Shown here one piece after another: positions 1,546 through 24,423 of a DNA stretch of 24,423 nucleotides (position 1 is its first letter; each line of letters starts with the position of its first letter). Location: the IMG/VR virus record IMGVR_UViG_2681813316_000024, positions 1-24,423 of that record. One strand, written 5' to 3'. The notes under the pieces are model-generated. The model was not told the DNA's origin and did no database searches. It saw only the letters and a list, made by a program, of their open reading frames with translations. The position numbers and the translations under genes are program-made. Source of the stretch: a virus (lineage: Duplodnaviria; Heunggongvirae; Uroviricota; Caudoviricetes).

Positions 1546-1860
1546 CCAGAAAAACATGACCTGTTAGCCGCCATTCTCGCGGCAAAGGAACAAGGCATCG
1601 GGGCAATCCTTGCGTTTGCAATGGCGTACCTTCGCGGCAGATATAATGGCGGTGCGTTTACAAAAACAGTAATCGACGCAACGATGTGCGCCATTATCGC
1701 CTGGTTCATTCGTGACCTTCTCGACTTCGCCGGACTAAGTAGCAATCTCGCTTATATAACGAGCGTGTTCATCGGCTACATCGGTACTGACTCGATTGGT
1801 TCGCTTATCAAACGCTTCGCTGCTAAAAAAGCCGGAGTAGAAGATGGTGGAAATCAATAA
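1537..1860 (+). CDS. S: Class I holin / antiholin (lambda S type)
   Basis: 107-aa ORF beginning [20 protein letters not shown]; three hydrophobic segments; matches recalled lambda S107; upstream leader also lambda-like. Confidence 0.95.
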
Positions 1861-2754: not shown

Positions 2755-3133
2755 TAGCGATAATTTTACTCATCATCCTTCACATCTGGCTCTGTAGACA
2801 GGGTGGTGATCACTTCTGGAGTGAATCCAGATTAAACATCTCATTGCTGATGCTTGATATTGAGCATCTGGCGCGCGGTAAGGGGCTGCGTTGAGATAAG
2901 AGCCAGTTCATTACAAAGCCTATCTACTGGTGGGCTTGATAATGAAACCGGAATTTATTCTGGGTAACCAGTTACGGCAGTACAGCGAAACAACCCAAGC
3001 CAGTAAGTGGGGAAATAACACTGGCAGCCACTGAAAGATGAACCTCCTGCCTTATGGCAAAAAAAGATTCTTTGTGGTGGCGGACTGATGGAAAGACATC
3101 CTAATCAAGCAACCACTCCACAGGGTCATAATT

Positions 3134-3514
3134 ATGAACGACCAGCAAATCGAAAAAGAAATCGTTGAGAAAGGCAAAACCGCTCCGAGAATCACTCCGC
3201 AGCACATCGAAGACGTGATTAAAAGCGAGCATTACTTTACTGCTTATGATGGACGTAATGGTGCCATTTCCAGCAACGAATATTGTGGCAGGGAAAAACC
3301 AGAAGAAGGCGATCGTGATTTATCACCATTGAAGTTGCTCACTTTCTGCGTACTGGTGCTGAAGAATGGCTTCACCGTCACCGGAGAGAGTGCCTGTGCA
3401 AGCCCGGAAAACTTTGATGCAGAAATTGGTCGGAAGATTGCCCGGCAAAATGCTGTAAACAAAATCTGGATGCTCGAAGGTTACTTGCTGAAGCAGAAGC
3501 TAAGCGAACAGTAG
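3134..3514 (+). CDS. Hypothetical phage protein (between lysis cassette and terminase)
   Basis: 126-aa ORF, same orientation as late operon; contains hydrophobic segment LLTFCVLVLKNGF; no catalytic motif recognised. Confidence 0.55.
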   Translation: MNDQQIEKEIVEKGKTAPRITPQHIEDVIKSEHYFTAYDGRNGAISSNEYCGREKPEEGDRDLSPLKLLTFCVLVLKNGFTVTGESACASPENFDAEIGRKIARQNAVNKIWMLEGYLLKQKLSEQ

Positions 3515-3617
3515 TTATTACAAAAGCCATTCCCTACAGAGTGGCTTTGATAATGGCTTATACCCTACACGGGATAACTTAACTGATATCCCTTTTAACG
3601 GATAAACGGAGCCAACA

Positions 3618-3860
3618 ATGGCAGAGATTATTCCCATGACTGAAGAACAGAAATTCAAGTTAGAAATTTACCGACTGCTATCTAAGAACAATTCAGCGGC
3701 AGAGGAAGCGTTTGCATTCATTGGGGCTGACCAGCTGAAACTGGAATTGTTCAAGTTGCACTACAACGATGGCGGTGCAAATCCAGACTTCACATCTCGC
3801 ACTATCGAAGCGGTGCGTAAATCGAAGGAAGCGTTAGACCTGTTCACTACCGGAGCATGA
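3618..3860 (+). CDS. Hypothetical small phage protein
   Basis: 80-aa ORF in late-operon orientation immediately upstream of small terminase; position recalls small ORFs preceding gene 3 in P22-like phages. Confidence 0.5.
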   Translation: MAEIIPMTEEQKFKLEIYRLLSKNNSAAEEAFAFIGADQLKLELFKLHYNDGGANPDFTSRTIEAVRKSKEALDLFTTGA

Positions 3861-3889
3861 TGCTCAGCCTGAAATGACAACTAAGTGAG

Positions 3890-4384
3890 ATGAATATGGC
3901 AGCACCAAAGGGCAACCGATTTTGGGAGGCCCGCAGTAGTCATGGGCGAAATCCTAAATTCGAATCGCCTGAGGCGCTGTGGGCAGCTTGTTGTGAATAC
4001 TTCGAGTGGGCTGATGATAACCCGCTATGGGAGGGAAAGGTATTTTCATATCAGGGAGAAATAATTAAGGCTAATGTCCCTAAGATGCGAGCCATGACTA
4101 TTTCAGGATTGTGTACCTTCCTTGATATCACCAGGCAAACATGGGGAACCTTCCGGTCAATGGAAGGTTTTTCTGACGTCACATCACGAGCGGAAGACAT
4201 CATCTACGACCAGAAATTCTCTGGCGCAGCCGCTGACCTTCTCAACGCTAACATCATCGCCCGTGATTTGGGCCTCAAAGAGCAGTCGCAAGTTGAAGAC
4301 GTGACACCTGATAAGGGAGATCGCGATAAGCGACGCTCTCGTATCAAGGAGCTATTCAACCGTGGAACTGGACGCGATTCTTGA
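3890..4384 (+). CDS. Terminase small subunit (P22 gp3-like)
   Basis: 164-aa ORF immediately upstream of and overlapping large terminase; N-terminus [29 protein letters not shown] typical of P22-family gp3. Confidence 0.8.
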
Positions 4385-5861
4385 TAACCTGAGCGACGAA
4401 GAGCAAATCGAATTGCTCGAGCTACTCGAAGAAGAAGAGAACTACCGGAACACACACCTGCTATATGAATTTACGCCATACAGCAAACAGCGTGAGTTCA
4501 TCGACGCCGGGCATGACTATCCAGAGCGATGTTTTATGGCTGGTAACCAGCTTGGTAAGTCATTTACTGGTGCTGCTGAAGTCGCGTTTCACCTTACAGG
4601 GCGTTATCCGGGAACAAAAGGCTATCCGGATGATGGTAAATATGGCGGGGAGTGGAAAGGTAAGCGTTTCTATGAGCCTGTTGTCTTCTGGATTGGCGGC
4701 GAGACAAACGAGACGGTAACCAAAACGACTCAACGCATCCTGTGCGGTCGTATCGAAGAGAATGACGAGCCAGGCTACGGTTCCATACCGAAAGAAGACA
4801 TCATTAGCTGGAAGAAGTCTCCTTTCTTTCCGAACCTTGTTGATCACCTTCTGGTTAAGCATCACACGGCTGATGGCGTTGAAGATGGCATTTCAATCTG
4901 CTACTTCAAACCATACTCGCAAGGCCGTGCTCGCTGGCAGGGTGACACAATCCACGGCGTGTGGTTTGACGAAGAGCCACCATACAGCATTTATGGCGAA
5001 GGTCTTACCCGTACCAACAAATACGGGCAATTCTCAATCCTGACGTTTACCCCGCTGATGGGGATGTCTGACGTTGTTACCAAGTTCCTGAAGAATCCCA
5101 GCAAGTCGCAGAAAGTGGTCAACATGACCATCTATGACGCTGAGCACTACACCGACGAGCAGAAAGAGCAAATCATCGCATCCTATCCTGAGCATGAGAG
5201 AGAGGCGCGTGCTCGCGGTATTCCTACGATGGGTAGCGGACGAATCTTCCAGATACCGGAAGAGACGATTAAGTGTCAGCCGTTCGAGTGTCCTGATCAC
5301 TTCTACGTAATTGGCGGGATGGATTTCGGATGGGATCACCCACAGGCGCAGGTTCAGCTTTGGTGGGATAAGGACGCAGACACAATCTACGTTTCACGCG
5401 TGTGGAAGGCGAAAGAAAAAACAGCCGTTCAGGCATGGGGAGCCGTTAAATCATGGGCGCATAAAGTGCCAACAGCATGGCCTCATGACGGAAACCAGCA
5501 TGAGAAGGGCGGTGGTGAGCAGCTCAAAGGGCAGTATGCAGACGCTGGATTTATGATGTTGCAGGAGCATGCGACATGGCCTGATGGCGGTAATGCTGTT
5601 GAGCCTGGCATCACTGAATTGCGAGACATGATGCTCGATGGCCGCTTCAAAGTATTCAACACCTGTGAGCCATTCTTTGAGGAGTTCCGCCTCTATCACC
5701 GTGATGAAAACGGGAAGATCGTCAAGCTTAACGACGACGTTCTCTCAGCCGTTCGCTATGCATACATGATGCGCCGCTTCGCCAAAATGATGCGCGACAT
5801 CAAAAAACCAAAAGAGAAAAAGATACCAGCCCCAATCAGGCCCATCGCACGGAGAACTTAA
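4362..5861 (+). CDS. Terminase large subunit (P22 gp2-like, headful packaging)
   Basis: 499-aa ORF, same length as recalled for P22 gp2; position between small terminase and portal; stop TAA directly abuts portal ATG. Confidence 0.9.
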
Positions 5862-8027
5862 ATGGCCGACGAAAACAGACTCAATTCCATTCTGTGTAAG
5901 TTTGACGCGGACTGGATGGCGAGCGATGAAGCCAGAACCGAGGCGACAAATGACCTGTATTTTAGCCGAGTGTCGCAATGGGATGACTGGCTATCAAACT
6001 ACACTACCCTGCAATATCGGGGACAATTCGATGTTGTTCGCCCGGTGGTCAGGAAACTGGTCGCAGAGATGCGCCGGAACCCTATCGACGTTCTCTTCCG
6101 ACCCAAAGACGGCGCTAATCCTGATGCTGCCGATGTGTTGATGGGAATGTATCGTACTGATATGCGCCATAACACGGCAAAGATTGCCGTTAACGTTGGC
6201 GTTCGTGAGCAGATAGAGTCCGGCGTTGGTGCATGGCGTCTGGTCACCCAGTACGAAGACAACGACCCAACAAGCAACAATCAGGTAATCCGACGCCTGC
6301 CAATCCATGAAGCCTGCTCACACGTCATATGGGACGCCAACAGCAAGCAGATGGATAAGAGCGACGCTAAGCACTGCACGGTGATTAACGCTTTGTCACG
6401 CAATGGCTGGAAAGAGTTCGCAGAGGATTACGGTATTGATCCTGACACCTTGCCATCTTTCCAGAATCCGAACGATACATGGCTGTTTCCGTGGGTATCG
6501 AATGATGTCGTCTACGTCGCTGAGTATTACGAGGTCGAAGAGAAGAAAGAGAAAGTCTTCATCTACCGCGACCCGCTGACAGGTGAGCCGGTAAGCTATT
6601 ACCAGCAGGATATCAAAGACGTCATCGACGACCTGGCTAATCGTGGATTCATTAAGGTAGCAGAGCGCAAGGTGAAGCGTCGGCGTGTGTATAAGTCGAT
6701 CATCACCTGTACGCAGATACTGAAAGACCGCGAGAAGATAGCCGGAGAGCATATTCCAATCGTTCCAGTGTATGGTGAATGGTCATTCGCTGGTGACAAG
6801 GAGTGCTACGAAGGAGTGGTAAGGCTGACGAAAGACGGTCAACGCCTTCGTAACATGATCATGTCGTTCAACGCCGATATTGTTGCTCGTTCACCGAAGA
6901 AGAAACCGACCTTCTTCCCTGAGCAAATCGAAGGCTACGAATACATGTACGGTGGAAATGATGACTATCCGTACTATCTGCAGAACAGGACCGATGAAAA
7001 CGGTAACGACCTGCCGATTGGTCCAATCTCCTACATGGAAAACCCTGAAGTGCCGCAAGCCAACGCTTACATGCTTGAGGCAGCCACCAACGCAGTGAAA
7101 GAGGTGGCTAGTCTTGGCGTGGATGCGCAGGCGGCAAATGGTCAGGTCGCTTTCGATACCGTCAATCAACTGAACATGCGGGCAGACCTTGAGACATACG
7201 TGTTTCAGGATAACCTGGCTACCGCAATGCGACGTGATGGCGAGATTTATGCCTCAATGGTCAACGATATTTATGACGTTCCTCGCCATGTAACGCTGAC
7301 TCTTGAAGACGGAAGCGAGAAAGACGTTCAACTCTACGCGCAAGTTGTAGATTACCAGTCCGGCAATGTGGTCACACTCAACGACATTCGCGGTCGCTAT
7401 GAGTGCTATACAGACGTTGGACCATCCTTCCAGAGTATGAAGGAACAGAACCGCGCAGAGATTCAGGAGTTACTCACCAAGGTTCCACAAGGTACTCCAG
7501 AGTTCCAGATGCTGATGCTGCAATACTTCACGCTGCTTGATGGTAAAGGCGTCGAGATGATGCGAGAGTACGCGAACAAGCAACTGGTGATGATGGGGCT
7601 GAAGAAACCAGAAACACCTGAAGAGATGGAGATGGTACAGCAGGCTCAACAGCAGCCGCAGCAGCCATCAGCAGAGCAAATTCAGGCGCAGGGTATCCTT
7701 CTGCAAGGTCAGGCTGAATTGCTCAAGGCAGAGAACCAACAGGCGCAGATTCAGGTTGAAGCCGCCAAGGTTGAAGCCCAAAACCAACTCAACGCCGCGA
7801 AGATTGCGGAAATCTTCAACAATATGGACCTAGACAAGCAGGCAGAACTGCGTGAGTACCTCAAGCTCGTAGGTCAATTCCAGCAACAGCGCAGCAAAGA
7901 TGCTCGTGCTAACGCTGAGCTGCTTCTTAAAGATGCAGACCAGACTCATTCACAACGCATGGATTTCGCGAATCTTATGCGTCAAGTTCAAATCCCCTCC
8001 GGCGGAGTAGCCGAGACACCTCAATAA
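5862..8027 (+). CDS. Portal protein (P22 gp1-like)
   Basis: 721-aa ORF; long runs match recalled P22 portal ([51 protein letters not shown]); Q/A-rich C-terminal helical barrel. Confidence 0.95.
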
Positions 8028-8040
8028 GAGAGAGTTAACC

Positions 8041-8952
8041 ATGGACCAAACCACCGACATTCAGGCTTCTGAAGAATTAACCCTGCCCGGCAATCATGCA
8101 GCGGCATCTGCTGATGGCTTAGTTGTCGATAATGCCAACGACAACGCAGGTCAGGAAGAAGGCTTCGAGATTGTCCTGAAAGACGATGAGAAACCAAAAC
8201 AAGACCCGGCAACTAATGCTGAATTTGCCCGTCGCCGCATTGAACGCAAACGCCAGCGTGAGCTTGAGCAGCAGATGGAAGCGGTTAAGCGTGGAGAGTT
8301 GCCGGAGCACCTGCGGGTGAACCCTGAGTTACCAAAACAACCAGACCCTAACGATTATCTTTCCGAAGATGCACTGGCTAAGTACGACTATGACCAGAGC
8401 CGCGCACTGGCTGCCTTCCAGCAGGCAAACAGTGAATGGCAGATCAAGGCTATGGACGCACGAAGCCAGGCTGTCGCCGAGCAGGGTCGCAAAACTCAGG
8501 AGTTCACCCAGCAATCAGCGCAATACGTCGAGGCAGCCCGTAAGCACTACGACGCAGCGGAAAAGCTCAATATCCCTGACTATCAGGAGAAAGAGGATGC
8601 ATTCATGCAACTGGTGCCGCCAGCAGTCGGTGCCGACATCATGCGCCTCTTCCCGGAGAAATCCGCCGCTCTCATGTATCACCTTGGTGCTAATCCTGAG
8701 AAAACACGCCAGTTGCTGGCGATGGACGGGCAATCCGCGCTGATTGAACTCACTCGACTGTCAGAACGTTTAACTCTCAAGCCTCGAGCCAAGCCAGTTT
8801 CAGAAGCCCCGTTACCTGATGAACCCATTCAGGGACACGCTGTTGCTGCAAATATTTCTGCGATTGAAAAGCAGATGGAAGCGGCAGCAAACAAAGGGGA
8901 TGTAGAGACATACCGCAAGCTCAAGGCGCAACTGAATAAAGGAATTCGATAA
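8041..8952 (+). CDS. Scaffolding protein (P22 gp8-like)
   Basis: 303-aa ORF matching recalled P22 gp8 ([35 protein letters not shown]..., C-terminal [11 protein letters not shown]). Confidence 0.9.
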
Positions 8953-10247
8953 TGGCATTAAATGAAGGTCAACTGGTCACGTATGCTCTGGATGAAATCA
9001 TCGAAACCATCCAGAACCTGACGCCAATGGCGTCTAAAGTGACAAAATACACCCCTCCGGCAGAATCCATGCAACGTTCAAGCAACACCGTGTGGATGCC
9101 TGTTGAGCAGGAAGCGCCAACTCAGACTGGCTGGGATTTAACTGGCAACGCTACCGGTATTCTGGAACTGTCCGTGAAATGCAACATGGGCGATCCGGAT
9201 AACGATTTCTTCGAGCTTCGTGCAGATGACCTGCGTGATGAGCGTTCTTACCGTCGCCGCATCCAGGCATCAGCTAAAAAACTGGCGAATAACATTGAGT
9301 CAGCAATTGCCAAACAGGCAACTGAAATGGGCTCACTTGTTGTTCACGATACCCGAGCAATTGGTCCATCTACTGGCCTGTCTGGCTGGGATTTTGTGTC
9401 TGATGCAGAGCGCCTGATGTTCTCCCGTGAGCTAAACCGCGATATGGGCATCAGTTACTTCCTGAACCCTGACGATTACCGCAAAGCAGGCCGCAACCTG
9501 GTAGATGGTGACATCTTCGGGCGCGTTCCTGAAGACACGTATCGCAACGGTACTATTCAGCGTCAGATTGCTGGCTTTGATGAAATTCTTCGCTCACCGA
9601 AACTTCCGGCAGTTACCAAGTCAGCCGCTACTGGTGTAACTGTTTCTGGTGCGCAGAAGTTTAAGCCGCAGGCATACACCCTTGATACCGATGGTAACAA
9701 AGAGAACGTCGACAACCGTGTTGCAACGGTGACCGTATCCTCCACCACCGGATTTAAGCGCGGCGACAAAATCAGTTTCACTGGTGTGAAATTCCTGTCT
9801 CAGATGGCGAAGAACGTGCTGACTGATGATGCGACTTTCTCAATCACCCGTGTGATCGATGGTACTCACATCGAAATCACGCCGAAGCCGATTGCGCTTG
9901 ATGACGTTTCACTGACAAAAGAAGAGAAGGCTTACGCTAATGTAAACACCTCTCTTGCTGATGCCACCCCGGTAAACGTTCTGAACGTGGCAACAACCAC
10001 CGCTAACGTGTTCTGGGCTGATGACTCAATCCGCCTGCTATCTCAGCCGATCCCGGTAACCCATGAACTGTTTGCTGGCATGAAAACGTCTTCCTTCAGC
10101 ATTCCTGGCATTGGTGTTAACGGCATCTTCGCAACGCAGGGTGATATCAACACTCTGTCTGGTAAGTGCCGTATTGCTGTGTGGTATTCAGCATGTGCTG
10201 TACGACCAGAGGCAATTGGTGTTGGTCTGCCTAACCAGACTGCGTGA
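8952..10247 (+). CDS. Major coat protein (P22 gp5-like)
   Basis: 431-aa ORF; start overlaps scaffold stop (TAATGG); motifs [35 protein letters not shown] match recalled P22 coat. Confidence 0.95.
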
Positions 10248-10254
10248 TAACCAG

Positions 10255-10278
10255 AGGGAGCTTCGGCTCCCTTTTTTA
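10255..10278 (+). terminator. Intrinsic terminator after coat gene
   Basis: Stem GGGAGC (10256-10261) / GCTCCC (10266-10271), loop TTCG (UUCG tetraloop), then TTTTTT (10272-10277). Confidence 0.65.
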
Positions 10279-10291
10279 TCTGGAGACAAAC

Positions 10292-10528
10292 ATGACACAC
10301 ATGATCTTTCGTCATGGCGACATGAAGAAGTGGAAAGGCGTTGGATACGACTTTGAAATCGTGAAAGCCGAAGAGCTTCAGGAATATCTGGATGCTGGCT
10401 GGTTTGCACATCCCGATGACCTTCTGAAGGATGTTGCAGAGCCAGAGCCAGAGCCAGAAGAAAAACAGAGTAAAAAGCCTGGTCGAAAACCTAAGGCGGC
10501 AGCAGATGAACCTGACAACGAAGGGTGA
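10292..10528 (+). CDS. Hypothetical small protein (between coat and gp4)
   Basis: ATG at 10292 preceded by GGAG (10282-10285); 78 aa, acidic PEPEPE low-complexity tail; stop overlaps gp4 start. Confidence 0.45.
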
Positions 10529-11006
10529 TTTAGTCCTTGCAGCATTACGTAAGCTCGGTGTTGCATCAAATGCCACGTTAACCGATGTCGAACCGCAGTC
10601 TATGGAAGACGGCGTCAACGACCTTGAAATGATGATGGCTGAATGGCTTGGCGGTGATGTGTCACCTGGTATCAACGTTGGCTACATTTTTGCTGATGCA
10701 GATGTCGCTCCGGATCCGGGCGATGAGCACGGTTTATCAAATAACGCTATCAATGCCGTCATTTTCAACCTTGCCTGCCGCATTGCTCCGGATTATGCGC
10801 TGGAATCGTCAGCAAAACTTATAACCACTGCCAGATACGGGAAAGAGCGACTCGTCAAACTGTCTGCAATGGACAGAGCAAAAGCCGCTAAATGTAAGTC
10901 CGGTTATCCAAACCGTATGCCTGTTGGTAGCGGTAACCAGTTGGCGAAGTGGAACGGTTGGAATTACTTCCACCGAAAGGAACCTTGCGATAACGGGAGC
11001 GAATAA
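10506..11006 (+). CDS. Head completion / tail accessory protein (P22 gp4-like)
   Basis: 166-aa ORF from ATG 10506; [25 protein letters not shown] and [13 protein letters not shown] match recalled P22 gp4. Confidence 0.85.
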
Positions 11007-12425
11007 ATGCCGATTCAGCAACTTCCGCTTATGAAAGGTGTCGGCAAAGACTTTCGAAACGCCGACTATATCGACTATCTGCCAGTGAATATGCTGGCTA
11101 CGCCCAAAGAAATCCTGAACAGCAGCGGATATCTTCGCTCATTCCCGGGCATTGCCAAACGTTCTGATGTGAATGGTGTATCGCGCGGTGTCGAGTACAA
11201 CATGGCGCAGAATGCTGTTTATCGCGTTTGCGGTGGCAAGTTGTATAAGGGCGAAAGCGAGGTCGGTGATGTTGCCGGAAGTGGTCGCGTATCAATGGCG
11301 CATGGTCGAACATCTCAGGCGGTAGGCGTTAATGGTCAACTGGTCGAGTATCGCTATGATGGCACGGTTAAAACAGTCTCAAACTGGCCTACAGACAGCG
11401 GATTCACTCAGTATGAGTTAGGTTCAGTCCGCGACATTACACGCTTACGTGGGCGTTATGCGTGGTCAAAAGACGGCACGGATTCATGGTTTATCACTGA
11501 CCTTGAAGACGAATCGCATCCTGACCGTTACAGCGCACAATATCGCGCAGAATCGCAGCCGGACGGTATCCTCGGCATCGGAACATGGCGAGACTTCATC
11601 GTCTGCTTTGGTTCATCGACGATTGAATATTTTTCCCTGACAGGTGCAACCACTGTTGGTGCCGCTTTGTATGTCGCACAGCCATCGCTGATGGTGCAAA
11701 AAGGCATCGCCGGGACTTACTGCAAAACGCCATTCGCTGATTCGTATGCGTTCATCAGCAATCCGGCAACAGGTGCGCCGTCTGTGTATATCATCGGTTC
11801 CGGTCAGGTATCACCAATCGCCAGCGCGAGCATTGAGAAAATACTACGCTCCTACACTGCTGATGAACTGGCTGATGGTGTGATGGAATCGCTGCGATTT
11901 GATGCGCATGAACTGCTGATTATCCATCTTACGCGTCACGTCCTCGTGTACGACGCATCTTCAAGCGCCAATGGTCCGCAATGGTGTGTACTGAAAACAG
12001 GCCTGTATGACGATGTGTACCGCGCTATCGACTTCATTTACGAAGGCAATCAGATAACGTGCGGCGATAAGCTGGAATCGGTTACCGGCAAATTGCAGTT
12101 CGATATCAGCAGCCAGTACGACAAACAGCAGGAACACCTGCTGTTTACTCCGTTGTTCAAAGCAGATAACGCCAGAGTTTTCGACCTTGAAGTTGAATCT
12201 TCAACTGGCGTTGCGCAGTATGCTGACCGCCTTTTTCTCTCTGCAACCACTGACGGCATCAATTACGGGCGTGAGCAGATGATTGAGCAGAATGAACCGT
12301 TCGTTTACGACAAACGCGTTTTGTGGAAGCGAGTAGGGCGCATCAGGAAAAATGTCGGCTTCAAATTGCGCGTTATCACTAAGTCACCTGTCACTCTGTC
12401 AGGCTGCCAGATAAGGATTGAGTAA
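11007..12425 (+). CDS. Tail accessory protein (P22 gp10-like)
   Basis: 472-aa ORF, same length and order position as P22 gp10. Confidence 0.85.
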
Positions 12426-13126
12426 TGGTTGATTCATCACTGAATAATCCTGTCGCGGTTCAGGCTACGCGCCTTGATGCTTCAATTTTGCCACGCAATA
12501 TATTCAGCCAGTCTTACATGCTGTATGTCATAAATCAGGGTGCTGATGTTGGCGCAATTGCCGGGAAGGCAAATCAGGCTGGTCAGGGCGCTTACGATGC
12601 TCAGGTGAAAAACGATGAACAGGACGTCGAGCTGGCAGATCACGATGCAAGAATCACCGCAAACACAAAAGCGATAAATCTCCTTGAGGTCAGGTTAACA
12701 ACCGCCGAAGGGAAGATAGTCGTACTACGTAGCGATGTTGATTACTTGCTGGATGAGGTTATCGATATTCAGGCGCATCTGGTCACTGTTGACCAAAGAC
12801 TGGATGGCGTAGAAAGCGATGTATCTGACATTAAGAGTGATTACGTATCGAAAACCGTAACCGAATCGCAGTCTCTTGCGTTACCGCTGGATGTAAAAAC
12901 ATCATATTCAGTTGATGGAATTCAGGTTATTGGAGCAAGAAATACCGGATGGACTGCAGCCACAGGTACACCTCTTCTTGGCTCATTCAACGCTAACCAG
13001 TCATACACAGTCGGCACTACGTACACACAATCCGAAGTCGCAGCACTCGCTACAGGTTTGCAGCAGGCGCGGCAGCGTATTCTGGCGCTTGAAACGGCAC
13101 TTAGATTACATGGGCTGATTGACTGA
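12425..13126 (+). CDS. Tail needle / cell-puncturing protein (P22 gp26-like)
   Basis: 233-aa ORF; N-terminus [19 protein letters not shown] and C-terminus ALR.HGLID match recalled P22 gp26; coiled-coil heptads. Confidence 0.9.
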
Positions 13127-13581
13127 TGATTACATTCAAACCAACGCGAAACATCGACCTGATAGAAGCCGTAGGAAATCACCCTGACATTATCGCCGGG
13201 AGCAACAACGGTGATGGATACGACTACAAACCTGAATGCCGTTACTTTGAGGTTAACGTGCACGGGCAGTTCGGCGGAATTGTTTACTATCAGGAGATTC
13301 AGCCGCTGACCTTTGATTGCCACGCCATGTACCTGCCAGAGATTCGCGGATTCAGCAAGGAAATAGGGCTGGCGTTCTGGCGATACATTCTGACTAACAC
13401 CACCGTTCAGTGCGTCACATCGTTCGCTGCACGCAAATTCCGCCACGGGCAGATGTACTGCGCAATGATTGGCCTTAAGCGTGTAGGAACCATCAAGAAA
13501 TACTTCAAAGGCGTGGATGACGTGACATTTTACAGTGCTACACGCGAAGAACTAATCGACTTCCTGAATCACGGGAGATAG
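13126..13581 (+). CDS. Head assembly protein (P22 gp14-like)
   Basis: 151-aa ORF in the gp26-to-gp7 position of the P22 gene order. Confidence 0.75.
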   Translation: MITFKPTRNIDLIEAVGNHPDIIAGSNNGDGYDYKPECRYFEVNVHGQFGGIVYYQEIQPLTFDCHAMYLPEIRGFSKEIGLAFWRYILTNTTVQCVTSFAARKFRHGQMYCAMIGLKRVGTIKKYFKGVDDVTFYSATREELIDFLNHGR

Positions 13582-13583
13582 CC

Positions 13584-14276
13584 ATGTTATATGCATTTAA
13601 GCTGGGCAGAAAACTGCGCGGCGAGGAACCTTATTGCCCTGAAAAAGGCGGGAAAGGTGGCAGCTCTGATAAAAGCGCAAAGTATGCAGCAGAAGCTCAG
13701 AAGTATGCCGCAGACCTGCAAAATCAGCAGTGGCAGACGATCATGAAAAACCTTGCTCCGTTCACGCCTCTTGCGGAGCAGTATGTTAACCAGCTTCAGA
13801 ACCTTTCCAGTTTAGAAGGTCAGGGGCAGGCACTTAATCAGTATTACAACTCTCAGCAGTATAAAGACCTTGCAGGTCAGGCTCGTTACCAGAGTCTTGC
13901 TGCTGCGGAGGCGACGGGTGGACTTGGTTCGACAGCCACAAGCAATCAACTGGCTACGATCGCGCCGACACTCGGTCAGTCTTGGTTATCAAATCAGATG
14001 AGCAATTACAACAATCTGGCAAACGTTGGGCTTGGTGCGCTGCAAGGTCAGGCAAACGCCGGGCAGACGTACGCCAACAACATGAGCAGCATTGCACAGC
14101 AAAGCGCAGCTCTTGCCGCTGCTAATGCCAATAAACCATCAAGTCTTCAGACCGCAATTAGCGGTGGCACGTCTGGTGCGATTGCCGGTGCAGGTCTTGC
14201 CAGCCTTTTGGAAACATCAACGCCTTGGGGCGCTGGCATTGGTGCTGGTATCGGATTGCTTGGCTCGTTGTTTTAA
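13584..14276 (+). CDS. Ejection (injection) protein (P22 gp7-like)
   Basis: 230-aa ORF, Gly/Ala/Gln-rich, hydrophobic C-terminus; position in P22 order. Confidence 0.8.
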   Translation: MLYAFKLGRKLRGEEPYCPEKGGKGGSSDKSAKYAAEAQKYAADLQNQQWQTIMKNLAPFTPLAEQYVNQLQNLSSLEGQGQALNQYYNSQQYKDLAGQARYQSLAAAEATGGLGSTATSNQLATIAPTLGQSWLSNQMSNYNNLANVGLGALQGQANAGQTYANNMSSIAQQSAALAAANANKPSSLQTAISGGTSGAIAGAGLASLLETSTPWGAGIGAGIGLLGSLF

Positions 14277-14285
14277 GGGGTAATC

Positions 14286-15692
14286 ATGGCTACTTGGCAA
14301 GGAACAAACGGCGGATTGTTGGCTGGTATCGGCGGCGTCAACTCAAACGCTCCGAGCGTAAATGACATCGGCAATACGCTTCAGCTTATCAGGCAGAACA
14401 ATGATATTGAGCGTTCAGGCGCTAACAATGTTGGGCTGACTGCTTTGCAAGGCCTTTCAGGTATTGCGGGGGTGTTTCAGCAGGAAAAGCAGGCTCAGCG
14501 GCAGAAAGAATTTCAGCAGGCATACGCTAATGCTTATGCGTCTGGTGATCGCGGTGCTTTGCGTCAGTTAGCTACTGAATATCCAGACCAGATTGAATCC
14601 GTTCGTAAAGGCATGGGATTCATTGATGAAGACCAGCGCAATTCCATCGGTACCTTAGCGGCTGGCGCTCGCCTTGCGGCATCGTCTCCAGAAGCGATGC
14701 AATCATGGCTGCAAAACAACGCCAAGGAACTGACTCGCGTAGGTGTTGACCCTAATAACGTTGCTCAGATGTATCAGCAGAATCCTTCAGGATTTGGTGA
14801 GTTTGTTGATCACCTTGGGATGGCTGCTCTCGGTCCGATTGACTACTTCAATGTTCATGACAAGATGGCTGGTCGTGAGATTGACCGAGGCAGGCTGGCA
14901 GAGACAATCCGCAGCAATCGGGCTGGAGAAGCACTTCAGGCGAGAGGGCAAAACCTTTCCTATCAGTCAGCAATGACTGGGCACAATATCGCAGCACAAC
15001 GCTTGGCTCTGGATCAGCAAGAGTTCGGGTTTAAGATGCAGCAAGCGCAGGAAAAGGCTCAGCAGTTGATTAGCGAAGCACCTAAGCTGTCAGTAAACAT
15101 GGAAAAAGGCATCGAGACGGCTGTAAACAATGCTACAGCATCATCAAACTCAGCCAATTCTATGAGTGCGCTTGCTCAACAGTTCAGAGCAGAAAAACCA
15201 ACGACAGGTTTGTTCGGTAACGCACAGAACATGTTCGCAAAACTTACCGGAAGCGATACAACATTGCGTGATTTGCGCATCCGCCAAAATGCCCTTGTTA
15301 ACAGTCAGGTTCTTAAATTCCTACCTCCAGGCCCCGCAACGGATAAAGACGTTGAGATCGTTCGGCAGGGGGCACCAACTGACATGGATAACCCTGAGAC
15401 GGTCGCAAGATGGCTTGATGCGATGGCAAACCTTGAGCGACGAAACGCGCAGTTTAATGAGTTTAAAGCCGAGTGGATGAGCGCGAATGGCAATCCAGGA
15501 CAATCGCGTAATGGCGGTCAGATATTGGGGTTGGATGTTAAAAAAGGTGAATCATTGGGGAGTGCCGTTAAGCGGTATATGTCAATGAATACTGACGCAG
15601 CGCCAGCACAAGATTCGACACCTTCAGGAGAACCACGGAATCAGGTTGGATCATATACCTCAAAATCAGGCATTCAATTTACGGTGGAATGA
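14286..15692 (+). CDS. Ejection protein (P22 gp20-like)
   Basis: 468-aa ORF following gp7 homologue; size and position match P22 gp20. Confidence 0.8.
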
Positions 15693-17920
15693 TGAAAGTA
15701 ACTGCAAACGGTAAGACATTTACCTTCCCTGATGGTACGAGCACGGAAGATATTGGCACCGCCATTGATGAGTATTTTGCTGGTCAGGCTGTTCAGCAAC
15801 AAACAGTTAATCAGGCCAATAATGAACCAGCACGGGAAGAACCATCATTGATGCAACAAGCTGGCGATTGGCTCACTGGTGGTCAAAGTGCAGGGCAAAT
15901 TGCAGAACAGGCTGGTCGTGGTCTGGTAAACATACCATTTGACGTATTGCAGGGTGGCGCAAGTCTGATTAATGCAATCAGTCAGGGGCTTGGGGGGCCA
16001 AAAGTATTGGATGATGTTTATCGTCCAGTAGACAGACCGACAGACCCCTACGCGCAAGCTGGAGAGTCAATAGGCGGTTATCTTGTTCCTGGAGCAGGTG
16101 TAGCTGGAAACATGGTCATTGGTTCTCTCGCTGACGCGGCGAATCAACGGGGTGATTTTGCCGAAAATGCCGCTATTAATGCCGGACTTAACATTGCTAC
16201 GCATGGCCTGATAAATGGCGTTACCCGTGGTGTTCGTGGTGCATCAAATATAATTAGTGGCAATAAAACATCTGCACAGAGAGCGACCACTGCGCCAACA
16301 GAAACATCACCATTCTCAGGTGATGCCGCTGCAGCAACAAATCCTGAGATTCATGCCGCAGAGGCAAGAGTAGCACAAGGTGTACCAATGATGCCTGCGA
16401 CGAGGAACCCAGAGGAAGTCGTTCGCACAGTAGCAGCACAAAAAAGGCCAAATCTCGCTTCATCGCTTGATGAACTAGATATCAATCCTCAGGCTGAAGT
16501 TCTGGAGTCTGCTGAAAGGCTTAATGTTGATTCATTACTCCCTTCACACTTTTCCGGGAACGAGCAATACAAGGCAGTTGAGCAAGCAATCAAGTCCCGT
16601 GCGGGTTCTGCTCTACAGGTGCAGGAAAATGAAGCAATCAGGCAGCTAGCACAGGGCGCGGGGGAGATAATTGATCGCGTTTCCGGTGCAAAAGATGCTC
16701 TTGGTATGAGCGACAAGTTTATTGATACGGTCAATGGAAGAATGTCTGCGCTGATGAAACGAAGCGACCAGCTTTATCGCAATGTTGAAAAGGCGATGCC
16801 TGCAGGTGCAAAAATTGATGCGCCATCAACAAGGTCAATGCTCAAACAGGTGGCAGAAGATCTTGGCGGGATGAAAAACCTTGACCCTATTGAAAAGAGA
16901 GTCTTTCGGGCAGTTAATCCAGGCAAGAACGGCGCATTAACTTATGCAAATCTCAATAAGCAACGACGACTTGTTGGTGATGCACTTCATAAGAATTCTG
17001 GACCATATAAAGATGCTGATCGCGCTGCTTTATCGAGGCTTTACGGTTCGCTCGCCGATGATCAAAAGGCGGCGCTGTCAGAGACAAATGCATTACGTGA
17101 TTTTGAAGTTGCTCAGAGGCTTGTTCAGATGCGAAAAAGCATGGAAGAGCAAATGATTAATCTAACTGGCAGAACGCTGAACGGTGATGTTTCTCGCAAA
17201 GCAACTACAGCACTACAGGCAATGTCGAAAGGCGATGCCAAAGGATTTCGTGAATTGATGCAAAACACGCCGTCCAGGAAGCTAAGAACCGAGCTACTGG
17301 GAACAGGTCTTCGGGATATGCTTTCGAACGGAAAACGTGGCGCTGATTTTAATCCTGCAGGGTTTGCTGACTGGTATCAAAACATGTTAGCAAACGGGCA
17401 GATGCGCAATCTTGCCCGACATTTACCAAAAGAGACTATGTCAGGTCTGAACGATGTATATAAGGTCGCAAAGGCTATCAAAGACGCAAAATCTTACGAG
17501 ATAACTACAGGAAGACTAAACGAGTTCGTCAAACGGTTTAATCGCGTCACTGCGGCAAATGAATTTGTTGCTAACCATGCCCAACGCATTGGCACTGCGG
17601 TTGGTTCAACTGTGTCAGGACCGTTCAGTGCAGTAGGTGCTGTTGCTGGGTCAGAAATTGGGGCAAAAGTCGCCAGCAAAATCAGGGTGATGGGCGGCGC
17701 TGCATCAATGGAATCTGCAGAAAAGCTAATTAGCTCACCAGAATTCCAGAAAGCAGCAAGGCTGGCAGTAAAACAAGCACCAGAAAGCATCGTTGATACA
17801 ACTGTAAGACGCTCTTCTGCTTGGCGCTCGTTTTACAACTCACTTCCAGAATCAGATAAGAAAACCATATCAAGGCTAGGCATCATGTACTGGATGAACA
17901 GTGATGATAACCAGAAGTAA
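15689..17920 (+). CDS. Ejection protein (P22 gp16-like), extended
   Basis: 743-aa ORF overlapping gp20 stop; last gene before tailspike as in P22-like phages; Ala/Gly-rich segments. Confidence 0.75.
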
Positions 17921-18198
17921 CGGAAAGCCACGGATGGTTAGTTGCAGTCTTTTTTATATAAATCTCTGTCCATAAATCCTCCTGTTTACCAAAACTATAT
18001 CAAACTTTAACGCAATGCTGCGCAACTTAAGTGACTGTCAGGTTGATAACAGACACTCTTTTTTGCATGATTCCTTTAGACCATCACAATTGATGAAGAA
18101 TCATGAAAAGAAGAACTCTTCTAAAGTCTTTGCTCGGCCTGACGTCACTCTTACCAGTTAAGTTTGCAGCATCTCAAAACCTGCAAGGTAAAAGTATA

Positions 18199-20441: not shown

Positions 20442-20456
20442 GGCCGCAATGCGGCC
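20442..20456. terminator. Bidirectional intrinsic terminator between convergent tailspike and SGNH genes
   Basis: GGCCG-CAATG-CGGCC hairpin; T-run on the - strand side (TTTTT) and weaker ATCTTTTA on the + side. Confidence 0.6.
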
Positions 20457-20461
20457 ATCTT

Positions 20462-21157
20462 TTACTTCACATGTTTATTAATCTCTCTCATCCAAACGGC
20501 ATAGCCATTTTTATTTAAATGCACTCCATCATCAAAGTACAATTCAGATTTTTTATCAGATAAAAAATCTGCAGGAACTTCTATTATATTGCAGTTAACT
20601 ATGCGACTACATGTTCTATCAATAATAGAGTTAATCATGCTTATTCTTGAATTGACATGGTCTACGTCTTTTCTTGCCCCGCTTATGATTGGCAAAACTT
20701 TTAATGCATAAATATTATCAACCTTTGATACACTCTTAAGCAGTTTGTCATAATCATCAAATATTTCCTCTTCGGTTTTCGCACCCATCGCATCGTTAAC
20801 TCCACCTTCAATTATCGCAGCTTTATATCCAGACGCCCCATAATTTTCTGATAGAGTTAGGATCTGATGTATAGAGTATCCTCCGACCCCCATATTAACA
20901 TATTTAAAGTTTAACCCATATGGTGACATTCCTTGTATGAGCGAGTCGCCATAAACCACAATGTCGCCGTCAGCTTGATTAGCATTCATTTTTTTAAAAT
21001 CTAGCATCACAGCCTGAAAGTCGTTAACTTTTTTTTGAGATAAATAATTTCTAATTGAACGAACAGACAATACTATAATAACTATTGCAATCAGAATAAA
21101 CAGCATTGCCAAATATTTATTTGCTTGAGACTTTCTATTTGTTTGTTTTGACTTCAT
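20462..21157 (-). CDS. Membrane-anchored SGNH/GDSL hydrolase (putative carbohydrate O-acetyl transfer/esterase domain protein)
   Basis: 231 aa; N-terminal TM helix YLAMLFILIAIVIIVLSV; block I VVYG70-D71-S72-L (Ser codon 20942-20944), block II GVGG, block III GGVND, block V DDGVHLN; good RBS AAGGAAA; AT-rich. Confidence 0.8.
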   Translation of the reverse strand: MKSKQTNRKSQANKYLAMLFILIAIVIIVLSVRSIRNYLSQKKVNDFQAVMLDFKKMNANQADGDIVVYGDSLIQGMSPYGLNFKYVNMGVGGYSIHQILTLSENYGASGYKAAIIEGGVNDAMGAKTEEEIFDDYDKLLKSVSKVDNIYALKVLPIISGARKDVDHVNSRISMINSIIDRTCSRIVNCNIIEVPADFLSDKKSELYFDDGVHLNKNGYAVWMREINKHVK

Positions 21158-21241
21158 TGCATTTTCCTTTTAATAAGGTTTAAGGTTAAAAATATATTTA
21201 CGCTTCAAATCAACGAATTGAGAAAATTATTCAGCCAACCA

Positions 21242-21520
21242 CTAACTAGACTTGCAATCTAATCTTATATATGATCTGAGTAAGAGTGTAAAAATCCGCT
21301 TAATCCTTCTTAAGTAAAAATCGGAAAAAGAAAATTTACCGCTATTTAAATTTTTAAAAATAATACTTGAAATTAAAAGGCTAGATATTATGAAAAATAA
21401 ATCAAACCCATTGAACTCTCCAGAAAATGCGCTTGGGAAAGCGTGAAACATCACAACAGCGACTGCTCTTAAACCATCTATACCAGCTCTATACTTTATC
21501 ATTTTTATTGTCCAATTCAT
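21242..21520 (-). pseudogene. Truncated N-terminal fragment of a second AT3-family acyltransferase
   Basis: 92-aa ORF with AT3 N-terminal signature YRAGIDGLRAVAVVMFHAF...GFDLFFIIS...FYLRRIKRIF, stops after about 90 residues; no convincing RBS. Confidence 0.5.
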
Positions 21521-21816
21521 CTACAGTGAAAGAGCAAAGAAAAACAATGCAATATATCTCATGTGACTACCCCTAAAATAAATTTAATGATAATAACATC
21601 ATGAGGATAAATTTAGAAGTGGGAAGATCGGAAATGCTCATTGAGCAGCAGAAAAAATATCACTGACTCTGTATACACATACAGTATTTTTTGTCTGTTA
21701 TTGATCATTGGATACTTGAGCCTAGCGTAAAAGTAATATGAATGATACAGTATGCTTATATAATTGATTTTTGCTCTCGGTGTAAGTTCGGATTGTATTA
21801 TATAACCAGAAAATAT

Positions 21817-21835
21817 CCCCAGAACTAAGCTGGGG
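21817..21835 (-). terminator. Candidate intrinsic terminator downstream of AT3 gene
   Basis: CCCCAG (21817-21822) / CTGGGG (21830-21835) inverted repeat with 7-nt loop; on - strand followed by AUAUUUU. Confidence 0.35.
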
Positions 21836-21849
21836 ATTCATGTCATATG

Positions 21850-22890
21850 TCAGCTTGCTAGTGCGATCTTCCTAAGCCTGTGACCTATATTTATAGATGG
21901 TTTTTCAATTACCTTATAAGAAATAGTTGCTAGTGCGATCGTAGCTAATAGGTATAAAACAAAAATAATAAAATTAAAATCTGTGTCCATGTCTATACTG
22001 ACAGATACAATCTCTAAAAAGAATGGGTGAATCAAGTATACAGAGTAACTTATCGATCCCAGGAAAACCAATAATCCTACATTCAATTTTACCCGTGTAG
22101 TGAGCAATAGCGTCAATACTATGCCTGTAAGATAGCTAGCAATATAGGAGGAAGCATTTTCCCCATGCCCATAGTCTTTATTGTAGGACATTAAGCAAAT
22201 CGGAGCAATCGCCACTAGGAATGTTATTAAAAATACAATGCACATATTTCTTTCTGATCTCGATGCAATCCCAATGCTCACTGAACGCCATAAGCTACCA
22301 AAGAACATTAATGACATAGCTAGCGGTATTGCCACAGGAACTTTTTTATCAAGAACGAATCTCACGTATGAGAAAGCAAGAGCGGTTGCAATAAGTCCTA
22401 TAGAAATTAAAAATAAAGAAACCTTACTCTTTAATAAATTTACTTTGAAAAGAAACGCACAGGAAGCATAGAAGAACAACTCAATTATTAGCGTCCAATA
22501 AACACCAAACATATCTGGAGATCTCAGTAAAGATTGAAGCATGGTAATATTAGACAACAGAGTTCTTATATCAAGTGGTCTATGAGTTACAAACAAAAAA
22601 GTAAAGGCCGCCAGAAATACTGAAAACCAGTAAGCGGGATATAGTCTAAAAAACCTTGATATAATGAACCCGGATATCGCTCTTTTCCCTTCCTTTAGGC
22701 TGTAAGGTATTACCATGCCACTTAACACAAAGAAGCAAACAACACCAACCTGACCAAAGTTAACATGCTTAAATAAAAAACTGTTATGCAATGGTGTTCG
22801 CTCTATGAAATGTGCACATGCAACCATCAGGGCTGCAAGTCCACGCAAAGAGTCTAGGAATTCTAGACGATTTCCATTTCTTATAGACAT
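21850..22890 (-). CDS. AT3-family integral-membrane acyltransferase (Oac-like putative O-antigen O-acetyltransferase)
   Basis: 346 aa, about 10 hydrophobic segments; N-terminal signature LDSLRGLAALMVACAHF...GVVCFFVLSGMVI...RFFRLYPAYW typical of acyltransferase family 3; between tailspike and int as oac is in Sf6; AT-rich. Confidence 0.85.
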   Translation of the reverse strand: MSIRNGNRLEFLDSLRGLAALMVACAHFIERTPLHNSFLFKHVNFGQVGVVCFFVLSGMVIPYSLKEGKRAISGFIISRFFRLYPAYWFSVFLAAFTFLFVTHRPLDIRTLLSNITMLQSLLRSPDMFGVYWTLIIELFFYASCAFLFKVNLLKSKVSLFLISIGLIATALAFSYVRFVLDKKVPVAIPLAMSLMFFGSLWRSVSIGIASRSERNMCIVFLITFLVAIAPICLMSYNKDYGHGENASSYIASYLTGIVLTLLLTTRVKLNVGLLVFLGSISYSVYLIHPFFLEIVSVSIDMDTDFNFIIFVLYLLATIALATISYKVIEKPSINIGHRLRKIALAS

Positions 22891-23267
22891 TAAAGATACC
22901 TAAGTTAAGTGTAGTAATAGGATTAATTTTAACAGCATGATTCTGTTGATCAATGGATAAGCAGCGTGTTTTGAAGTTGATCTGATTTTTACTATGATTA
23001 TATTGTGTTCTCGCACAGTATTTTATCGTAAGTGCACTATGGGCTTCTATCTCCAGCAGCAGAACTAGTTGAAGATAGTGTGTCAATCGACAAGAGCCTT
23101 ATTGCTCCAATCTCAGTCACGTACATGATGATATCCGTCAGGTCATTATCAACGAAGAGTGTTATGGTTAGTTTGATTATTGTGCGGTGATGTGAGAAAA
23201 ACTTAGAAAAACAAAGTCTTGCACTGGATTGCAAGGCTTTGCGCTATTCGATTGTGGTTGAGGCTGA

Positions 23268-24423
23268 TCACTTCACCTTTTCATCAAGCCAATCCGCCCA
23301 CCACTGCATCATTTCTCTGCGCTTATCGAGATACTGAGCGTGGTTGTAAATCCCGCGCACAGATCCGCCGTTGGCATGTGCCAGTTGCACTTCAATAGCG
23401 TCAGCAGGCCATTCGTGCTCGTTCATAATCGTGCTGAATTCATGCCTGAATCCGTGACCGCTTTCCAGACCTTCATAGCCGATTTGTTTGATCACAAGCA
23501 GTACAGCGTTCTGGCAAATTGGCTTCTTCTTATCGTTGCGCCCGGCAAAAACAAACTCTGACACTGGTTTAGTGATTGAGCTTAGCGTAGTGAGAAGTTC
23601 AATCACCTGGTCTGACATAGGAACCACATGAATTTTTCGACCCTTCATCACACTGGCGTCGATGGTGATAATCCTGTTTTCAAAATCGACGTTCTTCCAT
23701 AGCATGGAGCGAAGCTCTTTCGTTCTTAGGGCTGTGTAGCGCAAAACTTTAGTCGCAATGAGCGATACGATGCTCCCTGAAAATGTTGCCAGTGCTTTGT
23801 TGAATGCAGGGATCTGGTCTGCAGGAAGAAACGGGAAGTTCTTCTTGCGGTATCCCTTCATGGCGTCAGCAAGGTCAGGTGCCGGGTTATATTTAGCCCT
23901 ACCAGTGACAATAGCGTAACGGAAAACCTCGCCGCATCTTCTGCGGGCTTTATTTGCTCGCTCCATTGCACCGCGATCTTCAAATCTGCGGATTACTTCC
24001 AGTAGTTGCATCGGCTCAATATCCTGAATTTCAAGACCGCCGATGATGGGTAAAATGTCGTCATCAAACATTTTTGCAAGTTCATTTGCATAGCCCTGAC
24101 CAGACTTGCTTCTTGTGCTCGTACCATTCCTTGTAAATGGCGCTAAAGGAATTGTTGTTAGACGAAGCCTTTTTCGCCTTTACCGGATCGATGCCAACCG
24201 AGATGTCTTTCCTCGCAGTCCATGCTTTATCCCTTGCCTCTTGCAAAGTCATAAGCGGATATTTTCCGACGGTCAGGATTTTCTCCTTACCGTCAATCTT
24301 GTAGCGAAGCTGCCATACCTTTTTCCCTGACACAGGGACATAAAGGTACAGGCCATTACCATCGAGTAGGCGGTATGGTTTTTCTTTCGGCTTTGCTGCT
24401 TCAATCTGCTTAACGGTGAGCAT
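23268..24423 (-). CDS. int: Tyrosine integrase (P4-type, arm-binding N-domain), interrupted by a frameshift near 24072-24100; start codon at window edge
   Basis: Two consecutive - strand ORFs (24082..24423, 113 aa, arm-type domain; 23268..24071, 267 aa, catalytic domain with R...HGFRHEF...RGIYNHAQY Tyr region). The 267-aa frame read upstream gives ...QGYANELAKMFDD continuous with the N-terminal part. Confidence 0.75.

Follow-up and report, generated by a model that had tools for sequence, protein, structure and literature searches.

Among the described systems closest to the genes analysed here are OafA and OafB of Salmonella, in which a membrane AT3 acyltransferase, an extra transmembrane (TM) helix, a short linker and a periplasmic SGNH domain acting on O-antigen are fused. 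The final, acceptor-specific transfer is done by the SGNH domain, and both enzymes lack the canonical oxyanion residues (PMC7448272). OafB is also prophage-borne and affects phage interactions. In characterised AT3 acetyltransferases, activity requires an R/K-x10-H motif in the first TM helix (TMH1), FFxxSG, and RxxR in the loop between helices 2 and 3 (PMC7448272). In PatA/PatB and AlgI/AlgJ/AlgX, a translocase and a periplasmic SGNH transferase are encoded by separate genes, and PatB, one such SGNH transferase, can be supplied by the AT3-only protein WecH in place of PatA (PMC9558356). Whether AT3-only acetyltransferases need a partner, SGNH or other, is an open question in the AT3 literature (PMC9558356, PMC9833829). 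Here we describe an AT-rich island of surface-glycan genes at positions 20462-22890 of IMG/VR virus record IMGVR_UViG_2681813316_000024 (Caudoviricetes); the whole stretch analysed, 24,423 nucleotides, is referred to as the window.

The island is best read as a mosaic in which surface-glycan O-acetylation genes that move independently have come together in a P22-like prophage, at the E. coli argW/intS site. It would comprise three pieces: an autonomous cassette with an AT3-only acyltransferase (AT3-346), the dead stump of an OafA-type gene, and a conserved stand-alone gene for a membrane-anchored SGNH protein (TM-SGNH). The features on which this reading draws are as follows.

20462-21157, minus strand: TM-SGNH, 231 aa, matching Pfam Lipase_GDSL_2
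21850-22890, minus strand: AT3-346, a complete AT3-only acyltransferase of 346 aa, matching Pfam Acyl_transf_3
21212-21510, minus strand: stump of an OafA-type AT3-SGNH(PF19040) gene, recognised by blastn to the sister locus L004
18199-20436, plus strand: tailspike with a P22/Sf6-type head-binding domain and a receptor-binding part containing SGNH blocks
20442-20456: bidirectional intrinsic terminator (GGCCGCAATGCGGCC) shared by the tailspike and SGNH genes, which converge on it
21815-21837, minus strand: intrinsic terminator directly after the AT3-346 stop codon, with an 8-bp stem and a T-rich tail

The profile of guanine-cytosine (GC) content along the window gave 0.340 (34.0%) for the island against 0.494 (49.4%) for the late region at 1-18000, where same-sized intervals ranged from 0.473 to 0.518 and none fell below 47.3%. 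Within the island, the SGNH gene (0.335), the spacer with the stump (0.311) and the AT3 gene (0.363) are all AT-rich. The AT3 and SGNH genes both lie on the minus strand between the tailspike (plus, ending at 20436) and the integrase gene intS (minus, 23268-24423). From intS towards the tailspike, the order is a humD stump, AT3-346, its terminator, a LexA box, the stump open reading frame (ORF), the SGNH gene and the shared terminator, with 690 bp separating the AT3-346 and SGNH genes. An initial annotation of the sequence had called this an AT-rich surface-glycan acetylation island transcribed opposite to the late operon, and both the composition and the strands bear this out: the island occupies the classical lysogenic-conversion position of a P22-like prophage, and the catalytic residues of its SGNH protein are intact. 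The OafA-type stump, the terminator at 21815-21837, the LexA box at 21669-21684 and the humD stump at 23041-23184 lay outside that account. Megablast of the island against GenBank phage records returned no match, and a protein search of the same records found distant matches alone (24-35% identity).

Domain analysis placed TM-SGNH in Lipase_GDSL_2 with 52.8 bits (cutoff 32.9), and a Kyte-Doolittle scan revealed one hydrophobic segment, at residues 17-35, preceded by a basic N-terminus (K2, K4, R8, K9, K14); the juxtamembrane helix is conserved (FQ..M..FK..N..QADGD). All four SGNH blocks are present, namely GDS (S72), G92/G93, GGVND (N121) and D210-x-x-H213, and the protein thus shows the superfamily's blocks I (GDS), II (G), III (GxND) and V (DxxH) together with the alpha/beta/alpha fold. 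Across a 26-member family alignment, S72, G92/93, N121, D210, H213, C183 and C189 are invariant and block III reads GG(V/T)ND. The AlphaFold2 model has a predicted local distance difference test score of 88. The ATG is preceded, at 5 nt, by a Shine-Dalgarno sequence, AAAGGAAAA, and the ratio of nonsynonymous to synonymous substitution rates (dN/dS) is 0.13-0.19 against relatives, older relatives being the sole comparison.

The catalytic domain of TM-SGNH is predicted to be periplasmic, given the signal anchor at 17-35, the two invariant cysteines and the occurrence of the same helix after a 10-TM AT3 in a natural fusion described below. The succession of anchor helix, short linker and SGNH domain, which is the layout of the TMH11-linker-SGNH part of OafA/OafB, points the same way. 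The separate single-TM SGNH gene of the initial annotation is thereby recovered, and so are the two properties on which that account had been made to depend beforehand, a periplasmic location (as a prediction from the signal anchor) and catalytic geometry (from the presence of all SGNH blocks).

TM-SGNH matches phrog_14008, annotated as 'unknown function'; neither TM-SGNH nor AT3-346 nor the tailspike had a match in NCBIfam. A collection of 5.8 billion proteins yielded 28 TM-SGNH homologues, 26 of them stand-alone proteins of 212-245 aa and the other two 139 and 179 aa long; an exhaustive profile search retrieved 1,337 cluster representatives at E<=1e-10, and just 7 of the best 150 matches exceeded 400 aa. 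Scanning GTDB species-representative genomes with the family alignment produced no relative, and a metagenome scan contributed 9 more loci. Our literature searches found nothing on a stand-alone TM-SGNH family; a 2026 study of Klebsiella prophages mentions SGNH genes adjoining receptor-binding genes in passing only (PMC13123978). The nearest solved relatives of TM-SGNH are acetyl-esterases, and sequence and fold do not separate esterases from transferases. A derivation of TM-SGNH from the tailspike SGNH domain or from an OafA-type C-terminal domain was considered and dropped, as profile-profile comparison returned generic or no similarity.

AT3-346 matches Acyl_transf_3 (PF01757) with 106.2 bits (cutoff 31) over profile positions 2-325 of 326 and contains no other domain. 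It carries R16-x10-H27, F52-F53-V-L-S-G (FFVLSG) and R79-F-F-R82 (RxxR), and its long loop between TMH1 and TMH2 (~25 residues, H27 to F52, with FGQVGVV) is typical of unfused AT3 proteins. The initial annotation of a complete 10-TM AT3 stands as regards completeness; for the helix count, a crude Kyte-Doolittle scan gave ~9-10 hydrophobic segments, which is consistent with 10 TM helices and does not prove that number. AT3-346 belongs to phrog_3333 ('O-acetyltransferase'), and its homologues are single-domain in 120 of the 120 matches listed, nearly all of 330-400 aa. A dN/dS of 0.06-0.12 indicates strong purifying selection.

The cassette around AT3-346 (~21777-23146) recurs in other phage contexts at 81-83% DNA identity. 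In L030 it adjoins a myovirus-type tail fibre and in L032 it lies between humD and an unrelated tailspike, in both cases with no SGNH gene; in L031 it occurs once with a distant SGNH protein bearing a signal peptide. Relative to L004 the cassette is an insertion, since window 23006-22930 matches L004 419-495. This recurrence, together with the insertion, marks AT3-346 as an autonomous, separately mobile moron with its own terminator. Its pairing with TM-SGNH in the window came about by chance as the mosaic was put together; the two proteins may or may not co-operate now. As a separate observation, the metagenomic contig L031 (690-6048) encodes the AT3-346 homologue (89%), the distant SGNH protein (227 aa), a convergent OafA-type AT3-SGNH protein of 639 aa and a further SGNH protein of 378 aa, with an integrase fragment adjacent.

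The DNA between AT3-346 and TM-SGNH contains the remains of a third gene. Alignment by blastn to L004 (693-922 at 83% and 2593-2677 at 75% identity) revealed that the 5' ~220 bp (21291-21510) of a gene for a 660-aa protein is joined out of frame to its 3' ~85 bp (21212-21296), ~1.67 kb having been deleted at an ATTT microhomology. The stump reads as a 92-aa ORF (21242-21520) whose product is 74% identical to the N-terminus of the 660-aa protein. Its Pfam AT3 match of 20.8 bits is below cutoff, three codons are missing from TMH1 so that the R-x10-H spacing is broken, and the GG-F/Y-x-GV-D motif, PGGFIGVD in L004, has decayed to SGEFNGFD. The intact sister gene combines Pfam AT3 with PF19040 ('SGNH domain fused to AT3') and matches phrog_6705 ('O-antigen acetylase'). 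In L004-L007 and L035 it is followed by a separate 228-aa SGNH gene whose product is 76% identical to TM-SGNH; below 21296, the window aligns at the DNA level with the last ~85 bp of the 660-aa gene, the spacer, the SGNH gene and most of the tailspike of L004.

These relationships bear directly on a proposal of the initial annotation, that the 231-aa SGNH protein is the surviving 3' half of an AT3-SGNH fusion gene. A decayed AT3 fragment does lie 85 bp upstream of the SGNH gene, and a fused 595-aa form of the same SGNH protein exists in other E. coli. However, the fragment comes from a different gene, whose own PF19040-type SGNH domain and stop codon region are accounted for; L004-L007 retain the 660-aa gene in full and have the SGNH gene as a separate one, and so does L035. 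Moreover, the 26 stand-alone homologues (of 28) each have their own start and N-terminal anchor, and the AT3 part of the 595-aa fusion is only ~21% identical to the OafA-type gene behind the stump. We consequently regard the proposal as hardly tenable; the dead gene was a separate upstream gene with its own SGNH domain of a different type.

Comparison with OafA/OafB sharpens this distinction. The stump and the 660-aa and 611-aa sister genes are of the true OafA/OafB type (PF01757 plus PF19040, with the GGFxGVD motif), whereas the intact AT3 and SGNH of the window are two separate ORFs and the sole OafA-type gene is the 92-codon stump. TM-SGNH, a Lipase_GDSL_2-type protein, has canonical oxyanion blocks (Gly and Asn), unlike PF19040 with its atypical oxyanion hole, and hhalign detected no specific similarity between it and the OafA-type SGNH domain. 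In both AT3-346 and the fusion's AT3, the TMH1-2 loop is long and GG-F/Y-x-GV-D is missing. The intact genes of the window therefore fall outside the OafA/OafB fused family, three of whose defining features they lack.

The likeness to Oac of Shigella phage Sf6 is of another kind: the genes share the position between tailspike and int, the AT3-only architecture with the R/K-x10-H, FFxxSG and RxxR motifs, and, if PDB 7sg7 is indeed Sf6 gp14, a neighbouring tailspike with a near-identical head-binding domain. AT3-346 is nevertheless not close to Oac, as the phage collection contained no Sf6-like record at E<=1e-5 and the best phage match (35%) was to an Erwinia phage. To our knowledge, no SGNH gene accompanies Sf6 Oac. 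The window resembles PatA/PatB and AlgI/AlgJ/AlgX in gene separation and differs from PatA/PatB in having an AT3 in place of an MBOAT protein, and its adjacent tailspike with SGNH blocks recalls esterase tailspikes and fibres such as phage G7C gp63.1 and the SGNH receptor-binding proteins of Klebsiella prophages.

Further evidence comes from the genomic company of the TM-SGNH family, which was surveyed over 5-6 kb on each side of every locus; the loci represent few independent lineages, and several are near-identical copies. In the prophage loci, except three from Aeromonas, the SGNH gene and a tailspike or receptor-binding gene converge, 12-114 nt apart. Five architectures were distinguished.

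Architecture A, AT3-346 plus stump: the window and the near-identical L001, L003, L019-L021, L034 and L037
Architecture B, complete OafA-type gene upstream: the 660-aa gene in L004-L007 and L035; a 611-aa gene (40% identical) in L013-L016, L029 and L039
Architecture C, no AT3 gene in the available sequence: L008/L028, L012/L038, L017/L018, L027, L040 and L047, and Aeromonas L009-L011
Architecture D, 595-aa AT3-TM-SGNH fusion (P0295): L002 (E. coli SRY149), L022-L025 and L036
Architecture E, unfused orthologue of D: L033, reading AT3(377 aa)-TAG-GAGGAGTTGTC-GTG-SGNH(222 aa) with an 11-nt gap

Architectures D and E reveal the same SGNH family joined to an AT3 in two forms. The fusion cluster P0295 has 77 member sequences, and its SGNH part is 79% identical to that of the window. 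In L033, a strong ribosome-binding site precedes the GTG, and the gene pair is collinear with the fusion residue for residue, the two AT3 parts being 61% identical. Both forms have an AT3 of the unfused type: the TMH1-2 loop is long and GGFxGVD is missing. Beyond L033, the relatives of this AT3 are all AT3-only proteins of ~370-390 aa. More distant SGNH relatives overlap AT3-only genes in chromosomal Wzy-type polysaccharide clusters, ordered SGNH-AT3-GT4-Wzy_C in L041 and WecG-AT3-SGNH-Wzy_C in the P0035 locus. Where the window-type tailspike is present, exactly one intact AT3 domain is found in all three architectures (window/L001, L004-L007 and L002/L022-L025), and an AT3-only cassette is present where the OafA-type gene has been deleted. 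The fusion gene is itself decaying in one IMG/VR contig (L026, 260-1802), where it is broken into ORFs of 102 and 409 aa. In the Aeromonas loci of architecture C, the SGNH gene is also not adjacent to a tailspike.

The initial annotation had also offered a split two-component acetylation system. At the level of the family this is supported by the fusion, the coupled pair of L033 and the overlapping pairs; for the pair in the window such coupling is not seen. Its AT3 belongs to a different clade (AT3-346 and the AT3 part of the 595-aa fusion share only 26% identity), the two genes are set apart by 690 bp that contain a terminator, and each gene is found elsewhere without the other. Co-operation of AT3-346 with TM-SGNH is thus only a possibility.

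TM-SGNH is linked not only to acyltransferases but also to the tailspike. Window 21296-18562 corresponds to L004 2593-5329 as one contiguous block of 78% DNA identity that comprises the SGNH gene and the receptor-binding part of the tailspike, the latter (630 residues) being 87% identical at the protein level. The N-terminal adaptors of the two tailspikes differ, with a P22 head-binding domain in the window and Tail_spike_N in L004. Contiguous homology despite different tailspike N-termini shows that the SGNH gene moves with receptor specificity.

The window tailspike matched Pfam Head_binding at 1.6e-66, and its N-terminal sequence is near-identical to that of PDB 7sg7 ('Gene 14 protein'), presumably Sf6 gp14. 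Translation probably starts at 18199 (MSDITPN...) and not at the listed ATG at 18103, because RefSeq uses the equivalent start and homologues lack the 32 residues that 18103 would add. Against Lipase_GDSL_2 the tailspike scored 19.5 bits, below cutoff; its SGNH blocks (HGDS, AVAGQT, AGTNE and DDIH) all align with the TM-SGNH family in hhalign. Among other tailspikes accompanying the family, a second type has a significant GDSL domain and a third has none; Pfam GDSL matches are significant in L012, L013 and L047. SGNH blocks in tailspikes imply an O-acetylated glycan receptor.

Host genomes point to the identity of this glycan. One and the same wzx/wzy cluster is present in all three hosts checked: E. 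coli PigCaeca_1 and LR-06, with architecture A, and SRY149, with architecture D. Its assignment to the O88 family rests on RefSeq product names. The cluster includes rmlBAC, a gene of the NAD-dependent epimerase/dehydratase family, presumably for a 6-deoxytalose-type reductase, manBC and two cytoplasmic-type acetyltransferase genes. The window-type tailspike would accordingly recognise acetylated O88 O-antigen and the island would act on that polymer, and we consider the O88 O-antigen probably to be the island's target.

Taken together, these patterns incline us, by slightly better than an even chance, to the view that TM-SGNH carries out acceptor-specific acetyl transfer in the periplasm as a module of a surface-glycan acetylation system, with an AT3 on the outer side of the inner membrane supplying the acetyl groups. 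TM-SGNH would be kept near the membrane by its one helix and its short, conserved linker, the equivalents of TMH11 and its linker in OafA/OafB; Ser72 would take the acetyl group and pass it to a specific hydroxyl of the nascent O-antigen. The altered acetylation pattern would be read by the phage's own esterase-type tailspike, with serotype conversion and superinfection exclusion as the outcome. On this scheme acceptor specificity would reside in the SGNH protein, and the AT3 that supplies the acetyl groups could be exchanged. Among sister phages the supplier would be fused to SGNH, translationally coupled to it, or contained within an OafA-type protein; in the window it would be AT3-346 or an AT3 of the host, for example WecH. 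AT3-346 is probably also able to acetylate by itself, like Oac. We infer the direction of the reaction (transfer or hydrolysis), the acceptor and the hand-over from AT3-346 to SGNH from such comparisons.

The strongest evidence for transfer is the fusion/fission pair of architectures D and E, the overlapping pairs of AT3-only and SGNH genes, the precedent of OafA/OafB and the report on WecH and PatB; a generic, exchangeable AT3 combined with a specific SGNH travelling with the receptor-binding domain also fits the pattern of architectures. Several observations weigh against it. No AT3 lies within ~6 kb of the SGNH gene in L008/L028, L012/L038, L017/L018, L027, L040, L047 and L009-L011; the SGNH gene also stands beside complete OafA-type enzymes that have their own SGNH domain; and AT3-346 homologues adjoin receptor-binding genes without any SGNH gene (L030, L032). 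In the window itself, 690 bp and a terminator lie between the AT3-346 and SGNH genes, and the sample covers few independent lineages. A bolder extension, which we advance tentatively and rate as less likely than not, is that the phrog_14008 family acts in trans as the periplasmic partner that workers on AT3 proteins have suspected for stand-alone AT3s. As an acceptor-specific module for acetyl transfer, co-inherited with the tailspike receptor-binding domain, it could plug into any AT3 available. That AT3 might be fused, translationally coupled, an unrelated phage AT3 such as AT3-346, the AT3 half of an OafA-type enzyme, or one of the host such as WecH; if so, this would explain why TM-SGNH can be the sole conversion gene in some prophages.

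The principal competitor to acetyl transfer is a receptor-editing role, in which TM-SGNH would be a self-sufficient periplasmic O-acetyl-esterase that strips native acetyl groups from nascent O-antigen, with AT3-346 a separate, ordinary acetyltransferase. The acetyl groups would have been installed in the cytoplasm by acetyltransferases of the O-antigen cluster, two genes for which the hosts' O88 cluster indeed contains, and their removal would eliminate the determinant that an esterase-type tailspike needs. This is the simplest account of a lone gene, with catalytic residues intact, that is immediately convergent to tailspikes in several phage types, many of which carry an SGNH domain implying an O-acetylated receptor, and of its occurrence with complete OafA-type enzymes that need no second SGNH. 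The nearest solved relatives and the canonical oxyanion blocks agree with an esterase, and esterase receptor-binding proteins are active in Klebsiella prophages (PMC13123978). Nevertheless, S. aureus OatA, a transferase, has the canonical blocks too (PMC9487903), and the characterised AT3-SGNH fusions are all transferases (PMC7448272). The fused and coupled AT3-SGNH orthologues and the overlapping pairs in biosynthetic clusters are hard to explain by hydrolysis, and our literature searches found no lysogenic conversion by an esterase. We consider this role clearly less likely than transfer, though its weight is appreciable.

Improbable, in our judgement, is that TM-SGNH served only the deleted OafA-type AT3 and is now an intact but functionless passenger, so that AT3-346 alone matters. 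Decay is indeed evident at the locus, in a frameshifted intS and in the stumps of humD and of the OafA-type gene. The island is also young, to judge from its 99.9-100% identity across the three complete genomes that carry it, and purifying selection was measured only against older relatives. On the other hand, the SGNH gene is intact with a ribosome-binding site and all invariant residues, the deletion left the upstream region of the former operon in place, and the family persists alone in many prophages, which indicates independence from an adjacent OafA-type gene.

The locus and its relatives constitute a natural series around one SGNH family, which is found fused to an AT3, coupled to one, unlinked, alone, or paired with a complete OafA-type enzyme. 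For the window-type tailspike the series apparently operates on one O-antigen type (O88), which makes the AT3-only partner question directly testable genetically. It also provides a prophage conversion gene physically tied to the tailspike receptor-binding domain, including that of esterase-type tailspikes. The system bears on how temperate phages write or erase acetyl marks on their own receptor, and on serotype conversion and host range in E. coli and Enterobacter.

The remaining features of the region are regulatory sites and neighbouring genes.

22926-22953, minus strand: promoter-like site TTGATC-16-TAAAAT with TG upstream of AT3-346, a consensus match in a region where the count of such sites is not above shuffled expectation
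21669-21684: LexA (SOS) box core CTGTATACACATACAG, which precedes the stump ORF by ~150 nt and the SGNH start by ~510 nt
23001-23184, plus strand: degenerate LexA box (23003-23018, ACAG changed to ACAA) followed by the humD stump
23268-24423, minus strand: intS integrase gene, split by a 2-bp deletion near 24096

CTGT-N8-ACAG occurs once in the 24.4-kb window. Nearly every related locus has an equivalent, near-consensus LexA box ahead of its conversion genes, mostly at 20 nt from the start of a divergent humD and at 105-135 nt from that of the AT3 or SGNH gene. The box is most simply the humD operator, given that 20-nt distance to the divergent humD start in most loci; SOS control of the conversion genes was accordingly set aside and not used as evidence of function. 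The intact box of the window has no humD beside it. A frameshifted stump of this umuD-like gene, covering the first ~48 codons, was located at 23041-23184 by tblastn with HumD from L002, L008 and L032; it is 42-56% identical to the intact HumD of L002 and L032, resembles both loci at the DNA level as well, and lacks ~250 bp relative to L002.

Apart from its deletion, intS is 99.7% identical to the gene of E. coli PigCaeca_1 and yields two ORFs, an arm-binding part (24082-24423) and a catalytic part (23268-24071). A sequencing error could account for the split; otherwise intS is a pseudogene and the prophage would be trapped. In the lambdoid-type loci L012 (5314-5873) and L013 (3031-3587), a 79-aa ORF beside the LexA box is followed by a 106-aa protein starting MGFPSPA like HumD, which looks like a shortened HumD variant with a partner.

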